Assembly: GCA_000991405.1 (NCBI GenBank)
Contig: LBRL01000001.1
Location: 456,466-520,465 of the forward strand
Source: Candidatus Nomurabacteria bacterium GW2011_GWD2_36_14
GTDB taxonomy: Bacteria; Patescibacteriota; Minisyncoccia; Phycocordibacterales; UBA9973
DNA length: 64,000 bases
Reading direction: 5' to 3'
Shown here piece by piece: positions 26,828-54,512 of this stretch; positions within the stretch are counted from its first letter, which is position 1; the number at the start of each line of letters is the position of its first letter. The position numbers and the translations under genes were made by a program. The notes beneath the pieces were generated by a model. It made no database searches, was not told the DNA's origin, and saw only the letters and a program-made list of their open reading frames with translations.

Positions 26828-29563
26828 TTACAAATTCCTATACTTCTCCATTATCTCTTCTTCTACTTCTTCACGAAGGCGACCGTACTTGAGGTACGAT
26901 AACTCCTTGATCTTATCAACTATTTCTGTATTACCCTTTGGAGTTAGGCTCCAGTGGGAAGTCATAGAAAATGGCTTCGTCGGTGTACCATTTACCAGCA
27001 TTGAGACATATGAATTGAAATTATCCAACTTCATAATATCTGTTGCTGTGAAAGTTGGCTTGAATCTTGGCTCTATGAAGCTCGCATCCTCGGTACTGAT
27101 TCGATAGATAGCCATCGAACCCACGTTTCCGAAGACAGCATTCTTAATACCCTCTTCAAGTTGAGAAATATACTGGTGAGCCACAGTCAAAGACAAGCGG
27201 TACTTACGAGCTTCAGAAAGTATTGAGGCTATTGAGTCCGTCGTGACATTTTGGAATTCATCGATATATAGATAGAAGTCATTCATTTTCTGCCCATACA
27301 TATCTACACGAGAAAGCGCCGCCATCTGAATCTTGCCGACAAGCAGAAGTCCTATTAGATTGGCATTTACTTCTCCAAGTCTACCTTTAGAAAGATTGAT
27401 CAAAAGTATCTTTTTATTGTCCATGATCTCACGGAAGTTAAAGGCTGACTTCTCCTGAAGCACCACTGGACGCATGATGTCGTTCGATATAAAGTTGTCG
27501 AACTTGGAAGTAATGTATGGCACGAAGTTGGCAATGGACTGGTCCCCTGTTGTCTTCTCGGCATTGGCCCAGAATTCTTTGACGATTGGGTTCTTGCATT
27601 TAGCACAAAGTGCATCTCGGTATTCCTTGTTGCCAAGTATGCGCGTGATATCAAGTAAGGTTGCATGAGCTTCTGGATCATCCATGGCTAGGAAGGCACT
27701 GTTCTTGAAATATTGTTCGAACATCGGACCGCCTGAAGTCTTCATATCAAAAAGTTTATTGAAGATACTCATAAGCTCGTTGACCACGAAAGTCTTCTGT
27801 TCAGGATACTTGGGATCATACTCAAGCATGTTGAGCCCCATAGGACGAGCTGTATAAGCAGGGTCAAAGTATATGACGTCATCAATACGCTCCTTGGGTA
27901 CATAACTCAAGATGTCTTGGATATCACTACCATGCGGATCAATAAAGCAACATCCCTCCCCGTTCTTAATATCCTGCGCAATCATATTCTTCAATATTGT
28001 AGTCTTACCTGTACCAGTCTGTCCTATGACGTACATATGACGCATACGATCTTCGCGACTCATACGTATCTCTGTATCCTTACCTCGGTAGCTATTGATA
28101 CCCAAGAGTATCCCCTCACTGCCCATCTCAAGAGGAGCTGGGGCAAAGCCGGCCTTAGCCTGCTTGAGCTGTGAAGATACCACTCCATTGGGAAAGTGAA
28201 AGACCGTTGCAAGCTCTTTCAGATTGAGTGGCATCGAGTAATTATCAGAGAAGGTTCGATAAGAGAAATCATGAATGAGATTCATTAGAGACGAACCCGT
28301 AGGATGATTAAAATTGAAACCATTCCTGTCTGACTCGGTGAATTGATTGAAGGAGGACTCTATTTCAGAGAGTATTTGTTTGGATCTACTTTCGTCTTCT
28401 GCTGAAGCCATGATACGGATGTTGGTAGCCATGATAGTACTCTTGAGCTTCTCGCCGATGTACTCAACAGCCTTATCATTTACCTTTTTCTCTTCTTTCT
28501 TTTTAGAAGCTCCAAAAAGTAATTCGGACGCCAAATTCTTAAATTCTTTCGTGACTTGGCGAGTCATACTAGAGGCTGTACGAACCGACATCCCATTCTT
28601 CACATCAGAGTGAATGATGTGAAACTTTCTGATAATGTCTTCGTCTTCAGGACAAATAGAGAATTGAATTGCCGCTCCTTCGCCTTCCTTCTTTAACTTC
28701 GTAAAGACATTGAGAATGATATTTAAAGGATCGTGGTCGATAGCATCATAAAGCTTGATAGGATAGACTTCATGATGAGCGAGAGTAGCATAAGAGGCAC
28801 TGATAGATGCATGCTCAGAGAAAATATTGTAATCATCTGGCACTTCTGTAACTTTTGCATCCAAGTTCACTCCGAGAAGTTGCTTCTCGAAAAGTTCTGC
28901 CTTATTCGTAGGTACCGCAACGTAGAATACAAAGCTATCAGATCCTTCAGAAAGAGCAATCTCTAGGGTAAAGTGATTCCTATTATAATTCTCTCTACCT
29001 TCCCCCACTGAGTGCATACCTGCATAGAATTGCTCCATGGCAGAAAGTAATTCTTTCAAACCCTTCTTTTCTTTATCGTTATCAGCTGCATCTGGAAGAG
29101 TAATTTCGAAAAGTTTCATATCTAGAGATTTGAAGAGGGGTGTACCTTCTTTAAGTCCAGGAACTTTGTGAGTTGTATACAAGTATTGAACAAGGAAACG
29201 ATGGAAGTCGTCATCTAGGTGAGGATTGTTCATTTTGGCAATAACAGAAAGAACGTTGGAAATACCTTTGTCTAGTAGTATTGCAAGCATTTCTTCCATT
29301 TTGGCATCATGACCTTCTGGATGTAACCTCAAAACCAAACTTTCAACTTCTTTTTTACCCATGACTGCACTTTTATGCATTACATCTTCTGGCTCATACT
29401 TTCTGTATTCATGGATTACATCATGAGCAAGCATTTCCTTATTGGCCTCCTTGCCTTGTTCTACCAAGGCCTTCTCTTTCTCTGCGATATGCGCACGCAA
29501 AAATTCTAACTCCTCTTGTGGAGTCTTAAATTTAGGAGCATTGTTCAAATTAAATCCTTCCAT
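26828..29563 (-). CDS. FtsK/HerA-superfamily P-loop ATPase resembling type IV secretion coupling proteins (TraD/TraG/VirD4/TrwB-like), no N-terminal TM
   Basis: Walker A GQTGTGKTT, downstream FIDPHGSD (DPKG-like), Walker B YLYIDEF, C-terminal ARKYRLSLTVAHQYISQL; ~450-aa non-ATPase N-terminal region. Confidence 0.5.
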   Translation of the reverse strand: MEGFNLNNAPKFKTPQEELEFLRAHIAEKEKALVEQGKEANKEMLAHDVIHEYRKYEPEDVMHKSAVMGKKEVESLVLRLHPEGHDAKMEEMLAILLDKGISNVLSVIAKMNNPHLDDDFHRFLVQYLYTTHKVPGLKEGTPLFKSLDMKLFEITLPDAADNDKEKKGLKELLSAMEQFYAGMHSVGEGRENYNRNHFTLEIALSEGSDSFVFYVAVPTNKAELFEKQLLGVNLDAKVTEVPDDYNIFSEHASISASYATLAHHEVYPIKLYDAIDHDPLNIILNVFTKLKKEGEGAAIQFSICPEDEDIIRKFHIIHSDVKNGMSVRTASSMTRQVTKEFKNLASELLFGASKKKEEKKVNDKAVEYIGEKLKSTIMATNIRIMASAEDESRSKQILSEIESSFNQFTESDRNGFNFNHPTGSSLMNLIHDFSYRTFSDNYSMPLNLKELATVFHFPNGVVSSQLKQAKAGFAPAPLEMGSEGILLGINSYRGKDTEIRMSREDRMRHMYVIGQTGTGKTTILKNMIAQDIKNGEGCCFIDPHGSDIQDILSYVPKERIDDVIYFDPAYTARPMGLNMLEYDPKYPEQKTFVVNELMSIFNKLFDMKTSGGPMFEQYFKNSAFLAMDDPEAHATLLDITRILGNKEYRDALCAKCKNPIVKEFWANAEKTTGDQSIANFVPYITSKFDNFISNDIMRPVVLQEKSAFNFREIMDNKKILLINLSKGRLGEVNANLIGLLLVGKIQMAALSRVDMYGQKMNDFYLYIDEFQNVTTDSIASILSEARKYRLSLTVAHQYISQLEEGIKNAVFGNVGSMAIYRISTEDASFIEPRFKPTFTATDIMKLDNFNSYVSMLVNGTPTKPFSMTSHWSLTPKGNTEIVDKIKELSYLKYGRLREEVEEEIMEKYRNL

Positions 29564-30537: not shown

Positions 30538-30662
30538 ATATCATCATACTATCCCAAAACCTCAATATAATCAAACCAATTCTCCCAGATAGAGCTCCGG
30601 GCCCTATCTGGGAGAGTGAATTCATTTACCAATCTAAACCTATGGGTTTGAGTTGGTAAAGA

Positions 30663-31205
30663 TTATAAAGAGATAATTCCGTTATATTTAGAACTGATTA
30701 TCAAACCTTTGTACTTAGGTAAATCTACCTTATTGGCTACTTCGGTTTTTTCTGGATATGAGAAAAATATTTTTGTTTTAAAATTAATTCCCAAGAGTTC
30801 ATTTCTAAATGCACATTTATCTATATCCCCAGAGAAAATTACATACTTATGGTCTTTTAGTTTATTAAAAAGTTTTATACTATATTCTTCTATGTTCTTA
30901 AATAAAATAATTCTTTCATCTAAATCTTTTATTTTATCTAGCTCTTTTATGAAGTCATCTTCGTCTCCAGTTGGAATTATTATAATATTTTCATTCATTC
31001 TGCCATTAAGCTGGTCTCTAAATAATTCTTTCGCAGGATCAAAGCCTGTAAAGAATACAATCTTTTCTCCTTGTTCAAACAACTTGGTCATAAGTGATAC
31101 ACTGAAAAATGAAGCTCCACTTTGCACAAAAGCCTTACCGTTTATAAACATTGGAAAATCTTCTTTATTAAAAACCACTTCCTGCTCATTTATTGATATT
31201 TTCAT
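30663..31205 (-). CDS. hypothetical protein
   Basis: 180-aa ORF flanked by hairpins with shared CCAGATAG/CTATCTGG stems. Confidence 0.3.
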   Translation of the reverse strand: MKISINEQEVVFNKEDFPMFINGKAFVQSGASFFSVSLMTKLFEQGEKIVFFTGFDPAKELFRDQLNGRMNENIIIIPTGDEDDFIKELDKIKDLDERIILFKNIEEYSIKLFNKLKDHKYVIFSGDIDKCAFRNELLGINFKTKIFFSYPEKTEVANKVDLPKYKGLIISSKYNGIISL

Positions 31206-31248
31206 AAATTATTCTTCCAGATAGGGGTTGAACCCCTATCTGGGGTTA

Positions 31249-32946
31249 TTAATACACTTCCTGTTGATAGCACTTCTCACAGTATACTATTTCTGGTCGG
31301 TCGGGAGAATATGAGGTTTCGAATTCATTAGTACAACCCTCTTTCATACAAGAGCGATGGTAAAAATGAGGTGAATTACGTAATTGCAATCTTTCATAGT
31401 GACGACAATTAGGACATAACCTAGGTAATGGAATATTCATTCTTTTACAAAAATCAACTTCTTTTTCAATAACCCTAAAAGCCCCAACACATTCATGATG
31501 ACAATTTCCTTGATGAGCACATTCAATAATTTCATTTAAAATATTTTTATCTACATCTTGAATATCATCAGGAATTTCTGCATTTTTTAATGTTATTTTA
31601 TAATCTTGACCTAAAGTTGAATACCATGTAAATCCTTGCTCTTTAGCAACTTGTTCTTCTAATGGAAAAAATTCATATGCTTCTGTTGCCTGATATGGCC
31701 AAGGAGATAACGATGATGGGAAAAATTCACCATACTCACCAGTTGTTTTCATATGTTCAATTATTTTTGGAATCAATTCTTCATATTTTTCTTTTGTATA
31801 CTGTTTATTTAAAATACAATATTCTTTTTTACGAAGTGAAATACATCCAAACAAATTTGAACACGAGGGAAAACAAAAGAAACAATAAGTAAGATTTTTA
31901 CCATTTTGAACAACTTGAGAAGAAAATTTAACATTAGATATCCCACTTCCAACAACTAATGATTCATATATAAGCTCTACATTATCTCCATAATTTGCAT
32001 AATCGTAACAATCATTCACTGGACCAGTTAAAATATTTTGAATAAATTTACTATTTTCAACCTCTTTAACTCTAAAACAATTTAGAGCATTTTTGGACTC
32101 ATAAATATAATCACCTAAAACAGTTAGGTTTTGCTTTCCATGAATAAATTTATGAGGATATTTTAGCCAATGTTTATATGCTTGATCTTTTAATGATTGA
32201 AAATCTTTTTCTGAACCAAAATTAAATTCTGATAATTTCTTTTTATATTCTTCTTTTGTATAAGGCTTATTAAATATATAATATGATTTATTTCGAAGTC
32301 CAATTGAAGCAATACAATTATTACAACCTATGCAATCTTTGCATAAAATTGTATCTTGGCAAATTTCACAATCAACTGAAAAGAAAGTCTTATAGCAAGA
32401 AATAGTATTTACATTACCATAACTTAATTCGCATTGATCTGTCATGTGACTATCTAAACATTCTTTTGATTTTTGATCCCAAATAAGATAAGCAGAATCT
32501 TCTGTAAAAGATGCACCACGTACCAAATAACAACCTTTGATATTATTAGAATTTGTACAATATTCGCAATCTGTAATATACATCATGGAGTGTGCAGGGA
32601 GAGGAACTGTATGTAATAATTCTTTGAATTGTTCAAAAAAAGTTTTAGAAAAATCATAATCCTTACCATATGTAGTTGGGTCCCAATCATCTGAAATCCA
32701 ATAATCTCGATCATAAATTTTTACTGGACTTTCTTCGGGAAACAATGAAAAAATCTTTTTACCATTAAGACTGTCCGTTTTTTTAAATAAATGCCATCCA
32801 TTTCTCCAAGACATTCGACGCTGTAAACGACAATTAGGACAGAAGGTTGGAGGAGGGACTTTAATCTTCTCATAAAAAGAAAAGTCATCAGGTTCAATAA
32901 TAAAGTCTTTTTTACAGTTTTGGCAGGTCTTCGTTTGTGATTCCAT
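31249..32946 (-). CDS. large Cys-rich protein of unknown function (paralog A)
   Basis: N-terminal CQNCKKDF-IE-DF-FY-KIKVP-PTFCP-CR; many CxxC/CxC repeats; C-terminal NIPLP-LCPNCR...YC-KCYQQE-Y; paralogous to 52761-54512. Confidence 0.5.
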   Translation of the reverse strand: MESQTKTCQNCKKDFIIEPDDFSFYEKIKVPPPTFCPNCRLQRRMSWRNGWHLFKKTDSLNGKKIFSLFPEESPVKIYDRDYWISDDWDPTTYGKDYDFSKTFFEQFKELLHTVPLPAHSMMYITDCEYCTNSNNIKGCYLVRGASFTEDSAYLIWDQKSKECLDSHMTDQCELSYGNVNTISCYKTFFSVDCEICQDTILCKDCIGCNNCIASIGLRNKSYYIFNKPYTKEEYKKKLSEFNFGSEKDFQSLKDQAYKHWLKYPHKFIHGKQNLTVLGDYIYESKNALNCFRVKEVENSKFIQNILTGPVNDCYDYANYGDNVELIYESLVVGSGISNVKFSSQVVQNGKNLTYCFFCFPSCSNLFGCISLRKKEYCILNKQYTKEKYEELIPKIIEHMKTTGEYGEFFPSSLSPWPYQATEAYEFFPLEEQVAKEQGFTWYSTLGQDYKITLKNAEIPDDIQDVDKNILNEIIECAHQGNCHHECVGAFRVIEKEVDFCKRMNIPLPRLCPNCRHYERLQLRNSPHFYHRSCMKEGCTNEFETSYSPDRPEIVYCEKCYQQEVY

Positions 32947-33042: not shown

Positions 33043-33086
33043 ACTAGAACCTAGTCACTAGCCCCTAGCCCCTAGCCCCTAGAACC
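33043..33086. repeat. short tandem repeat (CTAGCCC)x3 plus CTAG-rich flank abutting pyrH stop
   Basis: CACTAGCCCCTAGCCCCTAGCCCCTAGAACCTA. Confidence 0.6.
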
Positions 33087-33775
33087 TAATTCTTGATCGT
33101 TGTCCCTGTAAATGCTTCCCCCTTTAGATAATTATTCAAGCCTTCTAGATTGGAACCAGACATAAATGCCACTTCCATGCCATCTTTTTCTGCCATTTCG
33201 GAAGCTATAGGATCGAATGGTGTGTTAGACCCTGGGGTCCACTTGGATGATATGAATGAGCGATATTCCTTCCATGTAAGATTCTCGAACTTCTTGGCTG
33301 TACTGTTTGTCTTTGGGTCGCTATCGTAAACATAGTCTATATTTGAAAGATTGACTATCTTCTTGGCATTAAGTTCTTTGGCTACTAAGACTGCGTCCGT
33401 ATCGGTTGAACACCCTGGTTGCCATCCTGCTCCTATGATAATATCGTCATTGAACTTTGTAACGTCCCTTGGGTCTATCACTATCTGACCAGAGGTATCT
33501 TTCCCAAAGGCAAGCCTCACAAGTTGAGCATTCAACTGTGTAGAATATATACCCATCCAGTCCAAGTCTTCACTCGTAGCTTCTATGACCTTGCTGAGTG
33601 CCTCATTGTAACGTCGGCAAGTCTTACCACCACCAACAATAATCACAAACCTCTTCCCTTTCTCTACCCATTCTAAAATAATCTTTTTGAAATCTTTGAT
33701 AAATTCTGGATTGGGCATGTCTGGGACAACGATTGCTCCTCCTAGTGATATAATTATTGTTTCTTTTTCTTGCAT
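33086..33775 (-). CDS. pyrH: UMP kinase, archaeal-type (amino acid kinase family)
   Basis: IISLGGAIV, VIIVGGGKTCRRY, GAGWQPGCSTDTDAVLVA; 229 aa. Confidence 0.7.
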   Translation of the reverse strand: MQEKETIIISLGGAIVVPDMPNPEFIKDFKKIILEWVEKGKRFVIIVGGGKTCRRYNEALSKVIEATSEDLDWMGIYSTQLNAQLVRLAFGKDTSGQIVIDPRDVTKFNDDIIIGAGWQPGCSTDTDAVLVAKELNAKKIVNLSNIDYVYDSDPKTNSTAKKFENLTWKEYRSFISSKWTPGSNTPFDPIASEMAEKDGMEVAFMSGSNLEGLNNYLKGEAFTGTTIKN

Positions 33776-52760: not shown

Positions 52761-54512
52761 ATGGAAAAAGAAAACAAAATCTGCCAAAATTGTAAAAAAG
52801 ACTTTACAATCGAATCAGAGGATTTTATATTTTACGATAAAATAAAAGTTCCAGTACCAACTTTTTGTCCAGAATGTAGATCTATTCGTCGATTATTATG
52901 GAGAAATGAACACACACTATATAGAAGAATATGTAATTTATGTCAAAAACAAATTATATCTATTTACTCACAAGAATACCCTGGGTTGGTCTACTGTAAC
53001 AAATGCTTGCATTCTGATAAATGGGATTCTAATAATCAAAAAGAATATGATTTTTCGATACCATTCTTTATCCAATTTAAAGAATTAATAAACTCCACAC
53101 CACTATTAGCATTAAATATTTTTAATTCTGAAAATTGTCAATACAATAATCATATGAGTAATTGTAAGGACTGTTATTTATGTTTTCGAGTTCATAATTC
53201 CAAGAATATGCTCTATACTTATCGCGCAAAACCATGTAACGATTGCACAGACTGCATGGGGGTATTTAATTCTAGTTGGCTTTATTCATGTATTGAGTGC
53301 ATAGATTCAAATAATTCTAAATATTTAGAATTTTGTAGTGGATGTATTGAATCTTTGTTTTTGTATGACTGCCGAAATTGTATGTCTTGCTATATGTGCT
53401 CAAATTTACGTAATAAACAATACTGCTTTATGAATGAGCAATTAACCAAAGAAGAATACCTAAAAAGAATAAGTGAAATTGATTTTGGGTCACGAAACAC
53501 TACAAACAAACTCTTTTTGAAATTTGAAAATATAAAAGCAAATGCGATAAGAAAATATGCGCTGATAACCAATTCAAGTAACGTTACAGGGGACAACATT
53601 AGAAATTCTGAAAACTGCTATCAATGCTTCGATGTTGCTGATATTAAAAATGGAGCATATTTACTTGAAGTATTACACTCATCTCGAGATTCATATGATG
53701 CAATCGGAGGTGGAATGAATGAGCTAGTGTATGAATTTGGTGGAGTCTCTTGTAATAATGCTAAGTTCTGTTTAGATGTCTCTGAGTCAAGAAACATTGA
53801 ATATTGCCAATACAGTGAAAATAATCATGATTTATTTGGTTGTGTAGGATTAAAACATAAAGAATACTGTATTTTAAACAAGCAATACACAAAAGAAGAA
53901 TACGAATTACTTCTCCCAAAAATAATTAATCATATGAATAATATGCCTTATATCTCAAAAGATAATGTTATATATAAATATGGTGAATTTTTCCCAGAAG
54001 AATTATCCCCATTTGCATACAATGAATCATATGCACAAAATTTTTTCCCTTTAACTAAGAAACAAGCATTCGATACAAAAACAGGTTGGCACGAACAAGA
54101 AAAAAGAAACTATCCATTAACAATTGACTCTTCCAATTTAGAAGATAATATTTCCAATGTTACTAAAAATATTTTGGAAGAAACAATTGGTTGCGATCAT
54201 AGAGGGGAATGTCAAGAAAACAATAGTGAATGTAAAGCAATCTGTATTTCTGCTTTTAAAATAACTCCTGAAGAACTTCAATTCTATAAAAAAATGAACA
54301 TACCATTGCCAACATTATGCCCTAATTGTAGACAACACAAAAGACTATTGCAAAAAAACCCCATAAAGCTATGGCACCGTCAGTGTATGTGCAGTACAAA
54401 ACACACTCATCATAAGGATGAACGCTGTGACATAAAATTCGAAACTATATATTCTCCAGATAAATCAGAAATAGTCTATTGTTCAAAATGTTATCAACAG
54501 GAAATATATTAA
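52761..54512 (+). CDS. large Cys-rich protein of unknown function (paralog B)
   Basis: Same N- and C-terminal Cys motifs and internal C-x2-C/NK-Y-ILNKQYTKEEY repeats as 31249-32946. Confidence 0.5.
   Translation: MEKENKICQNCKKDFTIESEDFIFYDKIKVPVPTFCPECRSIRRLLWRNEHTLYRRICNLCQKQIISIYSQEYPGLVYCNKCLHSDKWDSNNQKEYDFSIPFFIQFKELINSTPLLALNIFNSENCQYNNHMSNCKDCYLCFRVHNSKNMLYTYRAKPCNDCTDCMGVFNSSWLYSCIECIDSNNSKYLEFCSGCIESLFLYDCRNCMSCYMCSNLRNKQYCFMNEQLTKEEYLKRISEIDFGSRNTTNKLFLKFENIKANAIRKYALITNSSNVTGDNIRNSENCYQCFDVADIKNGAYLLEVLHSSRDSYDAIGGGMNELVYEFGGVSCNNAKFCLDVSESRNIEYCQYSENNHDLFGCVGLKHKEYCILNKQYTKEEYELLLPKIINHMNNMPYISKDNVIYKYGEFFPEELSPFAYNESYAQNFFPLTKKQAFDTKTGWHEQEKRNYPLTIDSSNLEDNISNVTKNILEETIGCDHRGECQENNSECKAICISAFKITPEELQFYKKMNIPLPTLCPNCRQHKRLLQKNPIKLWHRQCMCSTKHTHHKDERCDIKFETIYSPDKSEIVYCSKCYQQEIY

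Follow-up and report, generated by a model that had tools for sequence, protein, structure and literature searches.

The Pfam family PF13451 (zf_Tbcl) is a ‘probable treble clef domain’ for which no function is known. Zinc ribbons of the type described by TIGR04272 (cxxc_cxxc_Mbark) and PF23477 (zf_Tbcl_2) carry two cysteine pairs in the spacing CxxC-x17-CxxC, and purified proteins with this spacing bind zinc as measured by inductively coupled plasma mass spectrometry (PMC12704099). Narrow β-solenoids with coils of ~12 residues occur in the Tenebrio molitor antifreeze protein (TmAFP; 1ezg), the ryegrass ice-binding protein (3ult) and curli CsgA (8c50). Patescibacteria genomes, in turn, each encode about two homologues of VirD4-type type IV coupling proteins (T4CPs), mostly far from virB4 and with no known role (PMC12102498). 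Here we describe a family of cysteine-rich proteins, hereafter family F, to which the first three of these systems come closest among known ones, the coupling proteins resembling a neighbour of F. Two of its genes, A and B, lie in a stretch of 64,000 nucleotides (the window) from the Patescibacteria genome (G+C 35%) of Candidatus Nomurabacteria bacterium GW2011_GWD2_36_14. The parts of these proteins, zinc fingers and a β-solenoid, are of known kinds. What is new is their combination, the Cys/Ser-ladder character of the solenoid, the expansion of the family in reduced genomes and a ribbon held in common with orphan T4CP-like ATPases.

Both genes were recovered as open reading frames (ORFs) at exactly the positions given in a preliminary description of the window, and the paralogy claimed there was borne out by pairwise BLASTP, which aligned the two products end to end over their full length with 39% identity (E 4e-134), a similarity much too high to be due to chance. 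Both terminal motifs quoted in the same description can be seen in this alignment. A tblastn search found no third copy in the window. The product of A matches family member P0001 at 100% and a Nomurabacteria hypothetical protein at 87%; that of B has the same sequence (100% identity) as the NCBI entry US04_C0001G0537, a hypothetical protein from a Candidatus Nomurabacteria bacterium. Judged by their sequences, A and B are real, ancient and divergent paralogs of one Cys-rich family.

That this family could be assigned to no known one, as first suggested, has held: neither curated family libraries nor solved structures give an account of F, and no confident match of a profile hidden Markov model (HMM) to a characterised family was obtained for A or B. 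Neither protein has a match above threshold in Pfam, NCBIfam, PADLOC or PHROGs. PF13451 scores A at 15.6 bits against a cutoff of 24 and does not match B; among 50 family members, 19 match it at E ≤0.1, and P0017, at 24.5 bits, passes the 24-bit gathering cutoff. The N-terminal module covers profile positions 4-44 of 48, and the matches on individual members fall at residues ~5-44. Because PF13451 has no known function, membership in it explains nothing. PF23477 gives weak, position-consistent matches to the following ribbon (51-84) and to the C-terminal ribbon (555-581), the latter also weakly in P0131, with a best score on any member of 21.4 bits, under its 27-bit cutoff. TIGR04272 (36-bit cutoff) matches neither A nor B, and the LIM model (PF00412) matches one of the 50 members, not significantly (E 0.04). 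Radical-SAM, SPASM and ferredoxin models, and enzyme families generally, gave no match to A, B or the 50 members in Pfam and NCBIfam. The anti-phage defence models of PADLOC-DB likewise failed to match A or B at E ≤0.1. None of the features by which a protein would be placed with the hexapeptide (left-handed β-helix acyltransferase), bactofilin or pentapeptide models was found in F, a strong structural match included. When profiles of the whole protein and of each end were searched against PDB sequences, nothing significant was returned, the best matches being CRP LIM protein (E 0.1) and bL27m (E 0.4). Matches to Med15_N in 15 of the 50 members were dismissed as spurious, sitting as they do on a 25-residue helix. 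One phage family without known function, phrog_15341, was matched marginally (E 0.002) by residues 133-363 of B, in the solenoid; A gave no such match. Public names of members are all variants of ‘hypothetical’, ‘uncharacterized’ or generic ‘zinc-binding’ or ‘metal-binding’, and our literature search found no paper on family F, its zinc modules, the role of PF13451/zf-trcl, DUF8128 or Cys-rich tandem families of the Candidate Phyla Radiation (CPR).

On profile comparison the plan of the protein is symmetric: a treble clef and a CxxC-x17-CxxC ribbon, two solenoid modules (M1 and M2), an acidic linker, and again a treble clef and a ribbon (Table 1). The repeated LxNKxYxILNKQYTKEEY pattern noticed in the preliminary description proved to be a real internal tandem duplication. 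M1 (~105-242) and M2 (~254-395), modules of ~145 amino acids compared as slices 100-245 and 246-400, align in hhalign with a probability of 99.9% (E 1.8e-33), and both end in GC.nLRNK.Y.I.N.qYTKEEY; in A, M1 ends CxxCxxC...LRNKSY..N..YTKEEY. The N-terminal module (residues 4-55) recurs at 472-530 (probability 98.4%, E 4.7e-15). Every module is intact in B, whereas A has an N-ribbon without its four Cys and a shortened C-ribbon; at least four Cys are kept in the N-ribbon region by 88 of 185 full-length members. The treble clefs are basic (mean net charge +3.3 at the N-terminus, +5.2 at the C-terminus) and the remainder is acidic, with a mean of -4.9 for the whole protein and -6.2 for the linker. 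Within the linker Y405, G406 and Y418 are invariant, and no structural match to it was found. Conservation is concentrated at the ends and module caps, where the top-residue frequency is 0.62-0.78 against 0.35-0.46 in the solenoid cores. Inspection by eye of 12 F N-termini, with no predictor run on F, revealed no apparent signal peptide or transmembrane segment, and the proteins are probably cytoplasmic.

Table 1. Features of the window that are discussed in the text (residue numbers refer to the protein named)
Feature	Position in window	Strand	Remarks
Gene A, member of F	31249..32946	minus	565 amino acids, 33 Cys
A residues 1-55, N-terminal treble-clef zinc finger (zf_Tbcl-like)	32782..32946	minus	Basic; putative ligands C8/C11/C36/C39
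A residues 56-100, degenerate N-ribbon and linker	32647..32781	minus	All four ribbon Cys lost (alignment with B)
A residues 101-245, solenoid module M1	32212..32646	minus	Coils of ~12 residues, Cys/Ser lattice
A residues 246-400, solenoid module M2	31747..32211	minus	Tandem duplicate of M1; invariant C368, C377
A residues 401-470, conserved acidic linker domain	31537..31746	minus	Motif YGEFFP..SP..Y...A.E.FPL
A residues 471-530, C-terminal treble-clef copy	31357..31536	minus	C476/C486/C511/C514, plus H478, C482, H516
A residues 531-565, C-terminal zinc ribbon	31252..31356	minus	C533, C538, C556, C559 invariant
Gene B, member of F	52761..54512	plus	583 amino acids, 42 Cys
B residues 1-55, N-terminal treble-clef zinc finger	52761..52925	plus	C8/C11/C36/C39
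B residues 56-100, intact N-ribbon	52926..53060	plus	Exactly C58-x2-C61-x17-C79-x2-C82
B residues 101-245, solenoid module M1	53061..53495	plus	From alignment to A and family repeat analysis
B residues 246-393, solenoid module M2	53496..53939	plus	
B residues 394-472, conserved acidic linker domain	53940..54176	plus	
B residues 473-583, C-terminal treble clef and ribbon	54177..54509	plus	C478...C520/C523; C542/C544...C574/C577
DUF8128-type and VirD4/TraD/HerA-like ATPase fusion	26828..29563	minus	911 amino acids; candidate partner of A
Archaeal-type UMP kinase gene	33086-33775	minus	TIGR02076
ORF between A and map	30663-31205	minus	180 amino acids, without known function
Two G+C-rich hairpins bracketing the 180-residue ORF	30581-30615, 31215-31245		Stem CCCAGATAGRG / CYCTATCTGGG in both

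The cysteines, ~34 per protein, fall into two classes. The original estimate of more than 30 conserved positions was too high: an alignment of 50 sequences has 27 columns with at least 60% Cys, and just 15 of them (8, 11, 36, 39, 211, 368, 377, 476, 486, 511, 514, 533, 538, 556 and 559) are invariant, the further 12 being less strictly kept. Conserved cysteines of ligand type number about 15-19. Those of M1 follow a strict period of three residues, and hydrophobicity has a period of ~12, so that a narrow solenoid with coils of about 12 residues fits. The lattice cysteines are individually variable and are substituted chiefly by serine (39%, against 8% background); they show no co-variation at separations of 3, 9 or 12, no pairs or tetrads, and a negative correlation at separation 6, that is, opposite across the coil (phi -0.17). 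Because serine replaces them and they do not co-vary, the lattice reads as a Cys/Ser core ladder and not as obligate metal or disulfide partners; most solenoid cysteines would then be small core-packing residues, exchangeable with serine. On the same grounds we rejected a solenoid built as a metal wire or disulfide ladder.

Of the multiple zinc-ribbon or Fe-S sites that the preliminary description had read into these cysteines, zinc-ribbon-type sites at both ends are upheld; the use of all ~30 as metal ligands, or as Fe-S sites, is not. Metal binding is likely at the Cys4 sites in the end modules and perhaps also at the well-conserved coil C205/208/211/214. At the N-terminus, C8/C11/C36/C39 form two CxxC pairs some 20-25 residues apart and hence one putative site of the PF13451 type. 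The metal to be expected is zinc, since purified CxxC-x17-CxxC proteins bind it, and about three to five zinc sites and no Fe-S are expected per protein from the pattern of conservation. That the proteins might instead be Fe-S or other multi-metal redox proteins, with clusters held on the Cys lattice of the solenoid, is a suggestion that we find hardly credible. It can draw on the high Cys content and on the CxxCxxCxxC run C205/208/211/214, which lies in one 12-residue coil and is 81-98% conserved. Yet the lattice cysteines exchange chiefly with serine, and an Fe-S role is unlikely because they do not co-vary, opposite positions being if anything anti-correlated; no radical-SAM, SPASM or ferredoxin model matches; and the homologous ribbon type binds zinc (PMC12704099).

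Whether the repeats form a β-helix or tandem zinc ribbons had been left to structure prediction. An AlphaFold2 model of A, computed from the 50-sequence alignment and confident overall (predicted local distance difference test, pLDDT, 80.9; predicted template modelling score 0.83), has a short-strand solenoid in its middle and zinc fingers at both ends. The isolated C-terminal part has structural matches to treble clefs only (PHD, FYVE, E7), and the natural comparison group for the end modules would be the tandem or cross-braced treble-clef fingers of the LIM, PHD and FYVE types. The likeness of the N-terminal module to PF13451 extends beyond the C-x2-C-x24-C-x2-C spacing to an F.I...D..FY motif between the pairs and a CR..RR motif after them; in F, however, the module caps a protein of ~570 residues and occurs twice, the C-terminal copy having diverged. 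The likeness to TIGR04272 and PF23477 lies in the exact spacing of B 58-82 and in ribbon homology to the ATPases discussed below, and differs in an insertion between the first two ligands of the F C-ribbon, besides the Cys losses in A. The antifreeze, ice-binding and curli solenoids have no sequence similarity to F. They are extracellular, whereas F is probably cytoplasmic, duplicated and capped by zinc fingers, and the cross-coil disulfides of TmAFP contrast with the anti-correlated cross-coil cysteines of F.

The distribution across CPR genomes, proposed at the outset as a check, reveals a very large family whose named members are all from Patescibacteria. Sequence searches with A and B returned at least 7,981 and at least 7,064 clusters at 90% identity, respectively, and a HMMER search of 50%-identity cluster representatives returned at least 5,244 matches, of which 2,292 had E values below 1e-30; nearly all of the top 150 listed have lengths of 550-600 residues. 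Scanning species-representative genomes gave at least 589 confirmed places, from which 80 loci were kept. Their labels are almost all Paceibacterota, Nomura-, Staskawicz-, Jorgensen-, Giovannoni-, Lipton- or Sungbacteria, Minisyncoccia or generic CPR. On these labels, the family is confined to Patescibacteria. Two short contigs that hold F members are labelled otherwise, L066 (1.8 kb, Bacteroidales) and L075 (7.4 kb, Gammaproteobacteria), most likely through mis-binning. A phage origin was rejected, as just one F fragment occurs in IMG/VR viral contigs.

Neighbourhoods were compared in 82 F-centred loci and the window (83 sources); these loci are not phylogenetically independent. The number of F copies ranges from one (26 sources) to 11 per 22 kb. 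Locus L010 is filled almost wholly by same-strand copies, and L017, L008, L061 and L058 hold seven or eight. Gaps between neighbouring F genes have a median of 29 bp, with 84% at or below 60 bp. Paralogs within one array share 28-53% identity, and 97% of the copies in multi-copy loci have their nearest relative in another genome (median 0.59) rather than in their own locus (0.44). As far as these identities can tell, the arrays are an old, vertically maintained repertoire of separate lineages kept across genomes and not a recent burst; an expansion of the recent arms-race type was rejected, the paralogs being old and having closer orthologs elsewhere. Several arrays also contain F fragments of 118-440 residues beside full-length copies (L010 15698-16054 and 16132-17463; L008 16366-18054; L058 5795-7536; L028 8245-10005), which may be pseudogenes, frameshifts or artefacts of ORF calling from ATG only.

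The commonest neighbour of F outside the family is a soluble P-loop ATPase resembling VirD4, TraD and HerA, here called T, with Pfam matches to TrwB_AAD_bind, TraG-D_C and T4SS-DNA_transf. It comes in a long form of ~700 residues with a zinc ribbon (T-long) and a short form of ~500 (T-short), and the T proteins beside F have no transmembrane segment. It is T, and not F, that resembles the orphan T4CPs of Patescibacteria, sharing those matches and likewise not standing beside virB4. T occurs in 30 of the 83 sources (29 of the 82 F-centred loci and the window) and directly adjoins F in 19. In each of the 25 adjoining F-T pairs the two genes share a strand, and the median distance between them is 61 bp. 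The order grpE-F-(PaaX-like)-dnaK-Tlong-F(n)-Tshort-dnaJ-F recurs as a block, DnaK is encoded within 10 kb in 17 of the 82 loci, and large F arrays are bracketed by T genes (L010, L058, L061). T-long and T-short interrupt the Paceibacteria chaperone operon between dnaK and dnaJ in L089, L003, L007, L009, L018, L028, L059, L087 and L115; upstream of dnaK, in the usual place of hrcA, these interrupted operons have a divergent PaaX-like regulator.

A CxxC-x17-CxxC ribbon is present in all 16 T-long proteins and scores above the cutoff of TIGR04272 (41.2 bits against 36). By hhalign it is homologous to the F N-ribbon (probability 97.0%, E 9.4e-11) and to the F C-ribbon (probability 93.9%, E 1.6e-7). 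The only proteins that ribbon HMMs match, whether in the 1,205 ORFs of the F-centred loci or in the complete ORF set of 80 T-centred loci, are F and T. The T-centred sample comprised 80 metagenome loci (L086-L165) chosen by T-long similarity, 52 of them of at least 8 kb. In 44 of the 80, a DUF8128 protein with a single N-terminal transmembrane segment and the ribbon-bearing ATPase form a tight pair with a median gap of 31 bp (e.g. L137 4074-5405), which looks like a widespread two-gene module of Patescibacteria. Genes resembling sigma factor, pgk, recJ, mnmA and secA genes, as judged by sequence without a family search, are often near this pair. A literature search found no link between T4CPs and F, and PMC12102498 describes no T4CP partner.

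The window has a T of its own, encoded on the strand of A and three genes downstream of it (Table 1). This protein matches Pfam TrwB_AAD_bind, DUF87 and TraG-D_C, and its NCBIfam matches to TraD/VirD4-like models lie well under cutoff. Homology to the soluble part of ‘Mb’, a single-transmembrane protein of ~450 residues that is encoded separately elsewhere, extends over residues 174-480. L084, the locus of the 87% ortholog of A, has the same gene order as the window, with the DUF8128 label. Fusions of DUF8128 and ATPase were also seen at L062 13059-15824 and L025 3178-5550. Over nearly its full length the 911-residue fusion matches phrog_5156 (function not known; E 1.5e-84), from which it follows that phages carry full-length relatives of it.

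What might F proteins do? As no catalytic family or motif was found, they are presumably non-enzymatic. Tentatively, we favour the view that they are cytoplasmic, non-enzymatic, zinc-stabilised β-solenoid proteins with a binding or adaptor role, forming a multigene family specific to Patescibacteria. The basic zinc-finger ends would be the constant part, by which every paralog docks onto one shared partner or ligand, and the variable solenoid surfaces would give each paralog its own target, so that a genome would carry a repertoire of adaptor or recognition proteins. The likeliest common partner would be the two soluble VirD4/TraD-like ATPases of the Paceibacteria dnaK-dnaJ region, T-long carrying the same zinc ribbon as F; the DnaK system may perhaps be involved as well.

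Several results weigh against this adaptor role. The evidence for the link between F and its partner consists of gene neighbourhood and the common ribbon, and the ribbon is a widespread building block whose possession by two proteins need not mean that they interact. When gene order was shuffled within loci, 26.1 F-T adjacencies were expected and 25 observed, no more than co-occurrence in one locus would give. In the reciprocal direction, F was found in just nine of the 52 T-selected loci of at least 8 kb, mostly with the closest T-long relatives, and L089 has the dnaK-Tlong-Tshort-dnaJ block without F; the ATPases therefore do not need F. Both the shuffle and the reciprocal search led us to reject a close coupling of F and T in operons. 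Restricted to certain lineages, the link may partly reflect inherited synteny or a hotspot of gene expansion; overall we regard it as moderately supported. Ancient, stably inherited paralogs would fit structural, nucleic-acid-binding or chaperone roles as well. As to structure, the zinc-site count derives from conservation, AlphaFold placing no metals, and model confidence in M1 is just ~60 in pLDDT.

A nucleic-acid-binding role is the likeliest of the rival readings, though a doubtful one. Here the basic end fingers would grip DNA or RNA and the solenoid would be a rigid spacer; the paralogs would act in taking up or processing DNA, in recombination or in regulating genes, and might load DNA onto an FtsK/TraD-like translocase. 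The zinc modules are indeed basic, with a conserved arginine after the second CxxC (CRxxRR..RN); their ribbon type has been likened to TFIIB-like ribbons (PMC12704099); and the adjoining ATPases resemble DNA translocases, with TraD, VirD4 and CedD matches all under cutoff. Some F genes lie between ruvB and ruvC (L085) or near genes for RmuC, an RNase_T exonuclease or RecO, and in the lineage of the window they stand among adk, pyrH and NUDIX genes, L084 also having HD and β-CASP genes nearby. However, such DNA-repair and nucleotide-metabolism neighbours do not recur, no known DNA-binding model matches F, the protein as a whole is acidic and the structural neighbours of its end modules (PHD, FYVE, E7 and LIM-like) mostly bind protein or lipid. 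The ATPases could also suggest that F proteins are cargo, namely effectors recognised by VirD4-like coupling ATPases and exported to a host, the arrays being an effector repertoire. Patescibacteria are host-dependent and no role has been assigned to their orphan T4CPs (PMC12102498), the arrays in L010, L058 and L061 are bracketed by T4CP-like ATPases, and the ATPase either pairs with a DUF8128 protein, in which there is one N-terminal transmembrane segment, or is fused to it. We nonetheless think cargo quite unlikely. Effectors typically evolve fast, whereas the F paralogs are old and have changed conservatively; they have several folded domains stabilised by zinc, and no secretion signal is obvious in them; the T proteins beside them lack a transmembrane segment, such T4CPs are rarely near virB4, and most ribbon-bearing T loci have no F gene.

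The interleaving of F genes with grpE, dnaK and dnaJ in the recurrent block, and the 17 loci in which DnaK is close by, invite comparison with the chaperone system. With ~34 cysteines and several predicted Zn(Cys)4 sites, F might be a redox- or metal-sensing holdase or co-chaperone working with DnaK, DnaJ and GrpE in the manner of Hsp33 or the zinc centre of DnaJ, its activity switched by thiol oxidation or zinc release. This is distinctly improbable. F has no similarity to Hsp33 or to the CxxCxGxG repeats of DnaJ, many F loci have no chaperone genes (they are lacking in nine of the 19 with F-T adjacency), the dnaK-T-T-dnaJ block occurs without F, and ten distinct ancient paralogs are hard to explain as a general holdase. 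Very improbable, in our estimate, is a polymer-forming solenoid of the bactofilin or curli kind, acting as a cytoskeletal or envelope-associated scaffold: in the predicted model, helices and zinc domains cap both ends of the solenoid and would block end-to-end stacking, and divergent paralogs are not what one expects of a homopolymer.

Returning to an adaptor role, one may go further and suppose, though we consider it unlikely, that F paralogs are the specificity subunits of an unrecognised Patescibacteria machine, a membrane-associated translocase made of DUF8128 and ribbon-bearing VirD4/TraD-like ATPases. Such a translocase would be wired into the DnaK/DnaJ/GrpE operon of Paceibacteria, some ten adaptors each bringing a client of their own, whether protein or nucleic acid, to the ATPase by way of the common CxxC-x17-CxxC ribbon. 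Were this so, the ‘orphan’ T4CPs of the CPR would gain both a function and a set of partners. Patescibacteria genomes are very small, yet in some of them ~20 kb of one 22-kb locus is given over to F; the retention of many ancient paralogs in reduced genomes implies an important, lineage-defining function. Should the idea of an adaptor-translocase be wrong, F would nonetheless represent a new and well-defined architecture, in which a solenoid with a Cys/Ser ladder has zinc-finger caps at both ends. The domain map, the prediction of three to five zinc sites and a candidate ATPase partner make this portion of CPR ‘dark matter’ experimentally approachable.

In the window itself, A and B each sit beside a nucleotide-metabolism gene, as first described, and the two neighbours, pyrH and NUDIX, had been rightly named. 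The former encodes an archaeal-type uridine monophosphate (UMP) kinase (TIGR02076 pyrH_arch 184.8 bits against a cutoff of 158; bacterial model 56.7), and the latter scores 32.6 bits in Pfam against a cutoff of 21.1. The association is not general, however. Homologues of pyrH, NUDIX, adk, map and secY occur in none or one of the 82 other loci, on which ground a general link to nucleotide metabolism was rejected, and a context like that of the window was seen only in the close relatives L084 and L062. In the ribosomal-protein operon, within its secY-adk-map part, adk and map are separated by the inserted UMP kinase gene and A; a role tied to that operon was also rejected, the placement adk-A-map being kept just in the same two relatives. 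More distant orthologs of A, at 70% and 75% identity, lie after grpE (L001) and between ruvB and ruvC (L085), respectively. The latter, on one Paceibacteria contig (L085 4689-8008), has dnaN and dnaA within 6 kb.

Between A and map there is in addition a 180-residue ORF flanked by two hairpins (Table 1), whose exact stem CCCAGATAGRG has no further occurrence in the window. The ORF is missing from the orthologous locus L084, and its homologues were found just in L018 and L028, likewise beside F genes. An inserted cassette is one possible explanation, terminator function of the hairpins another.

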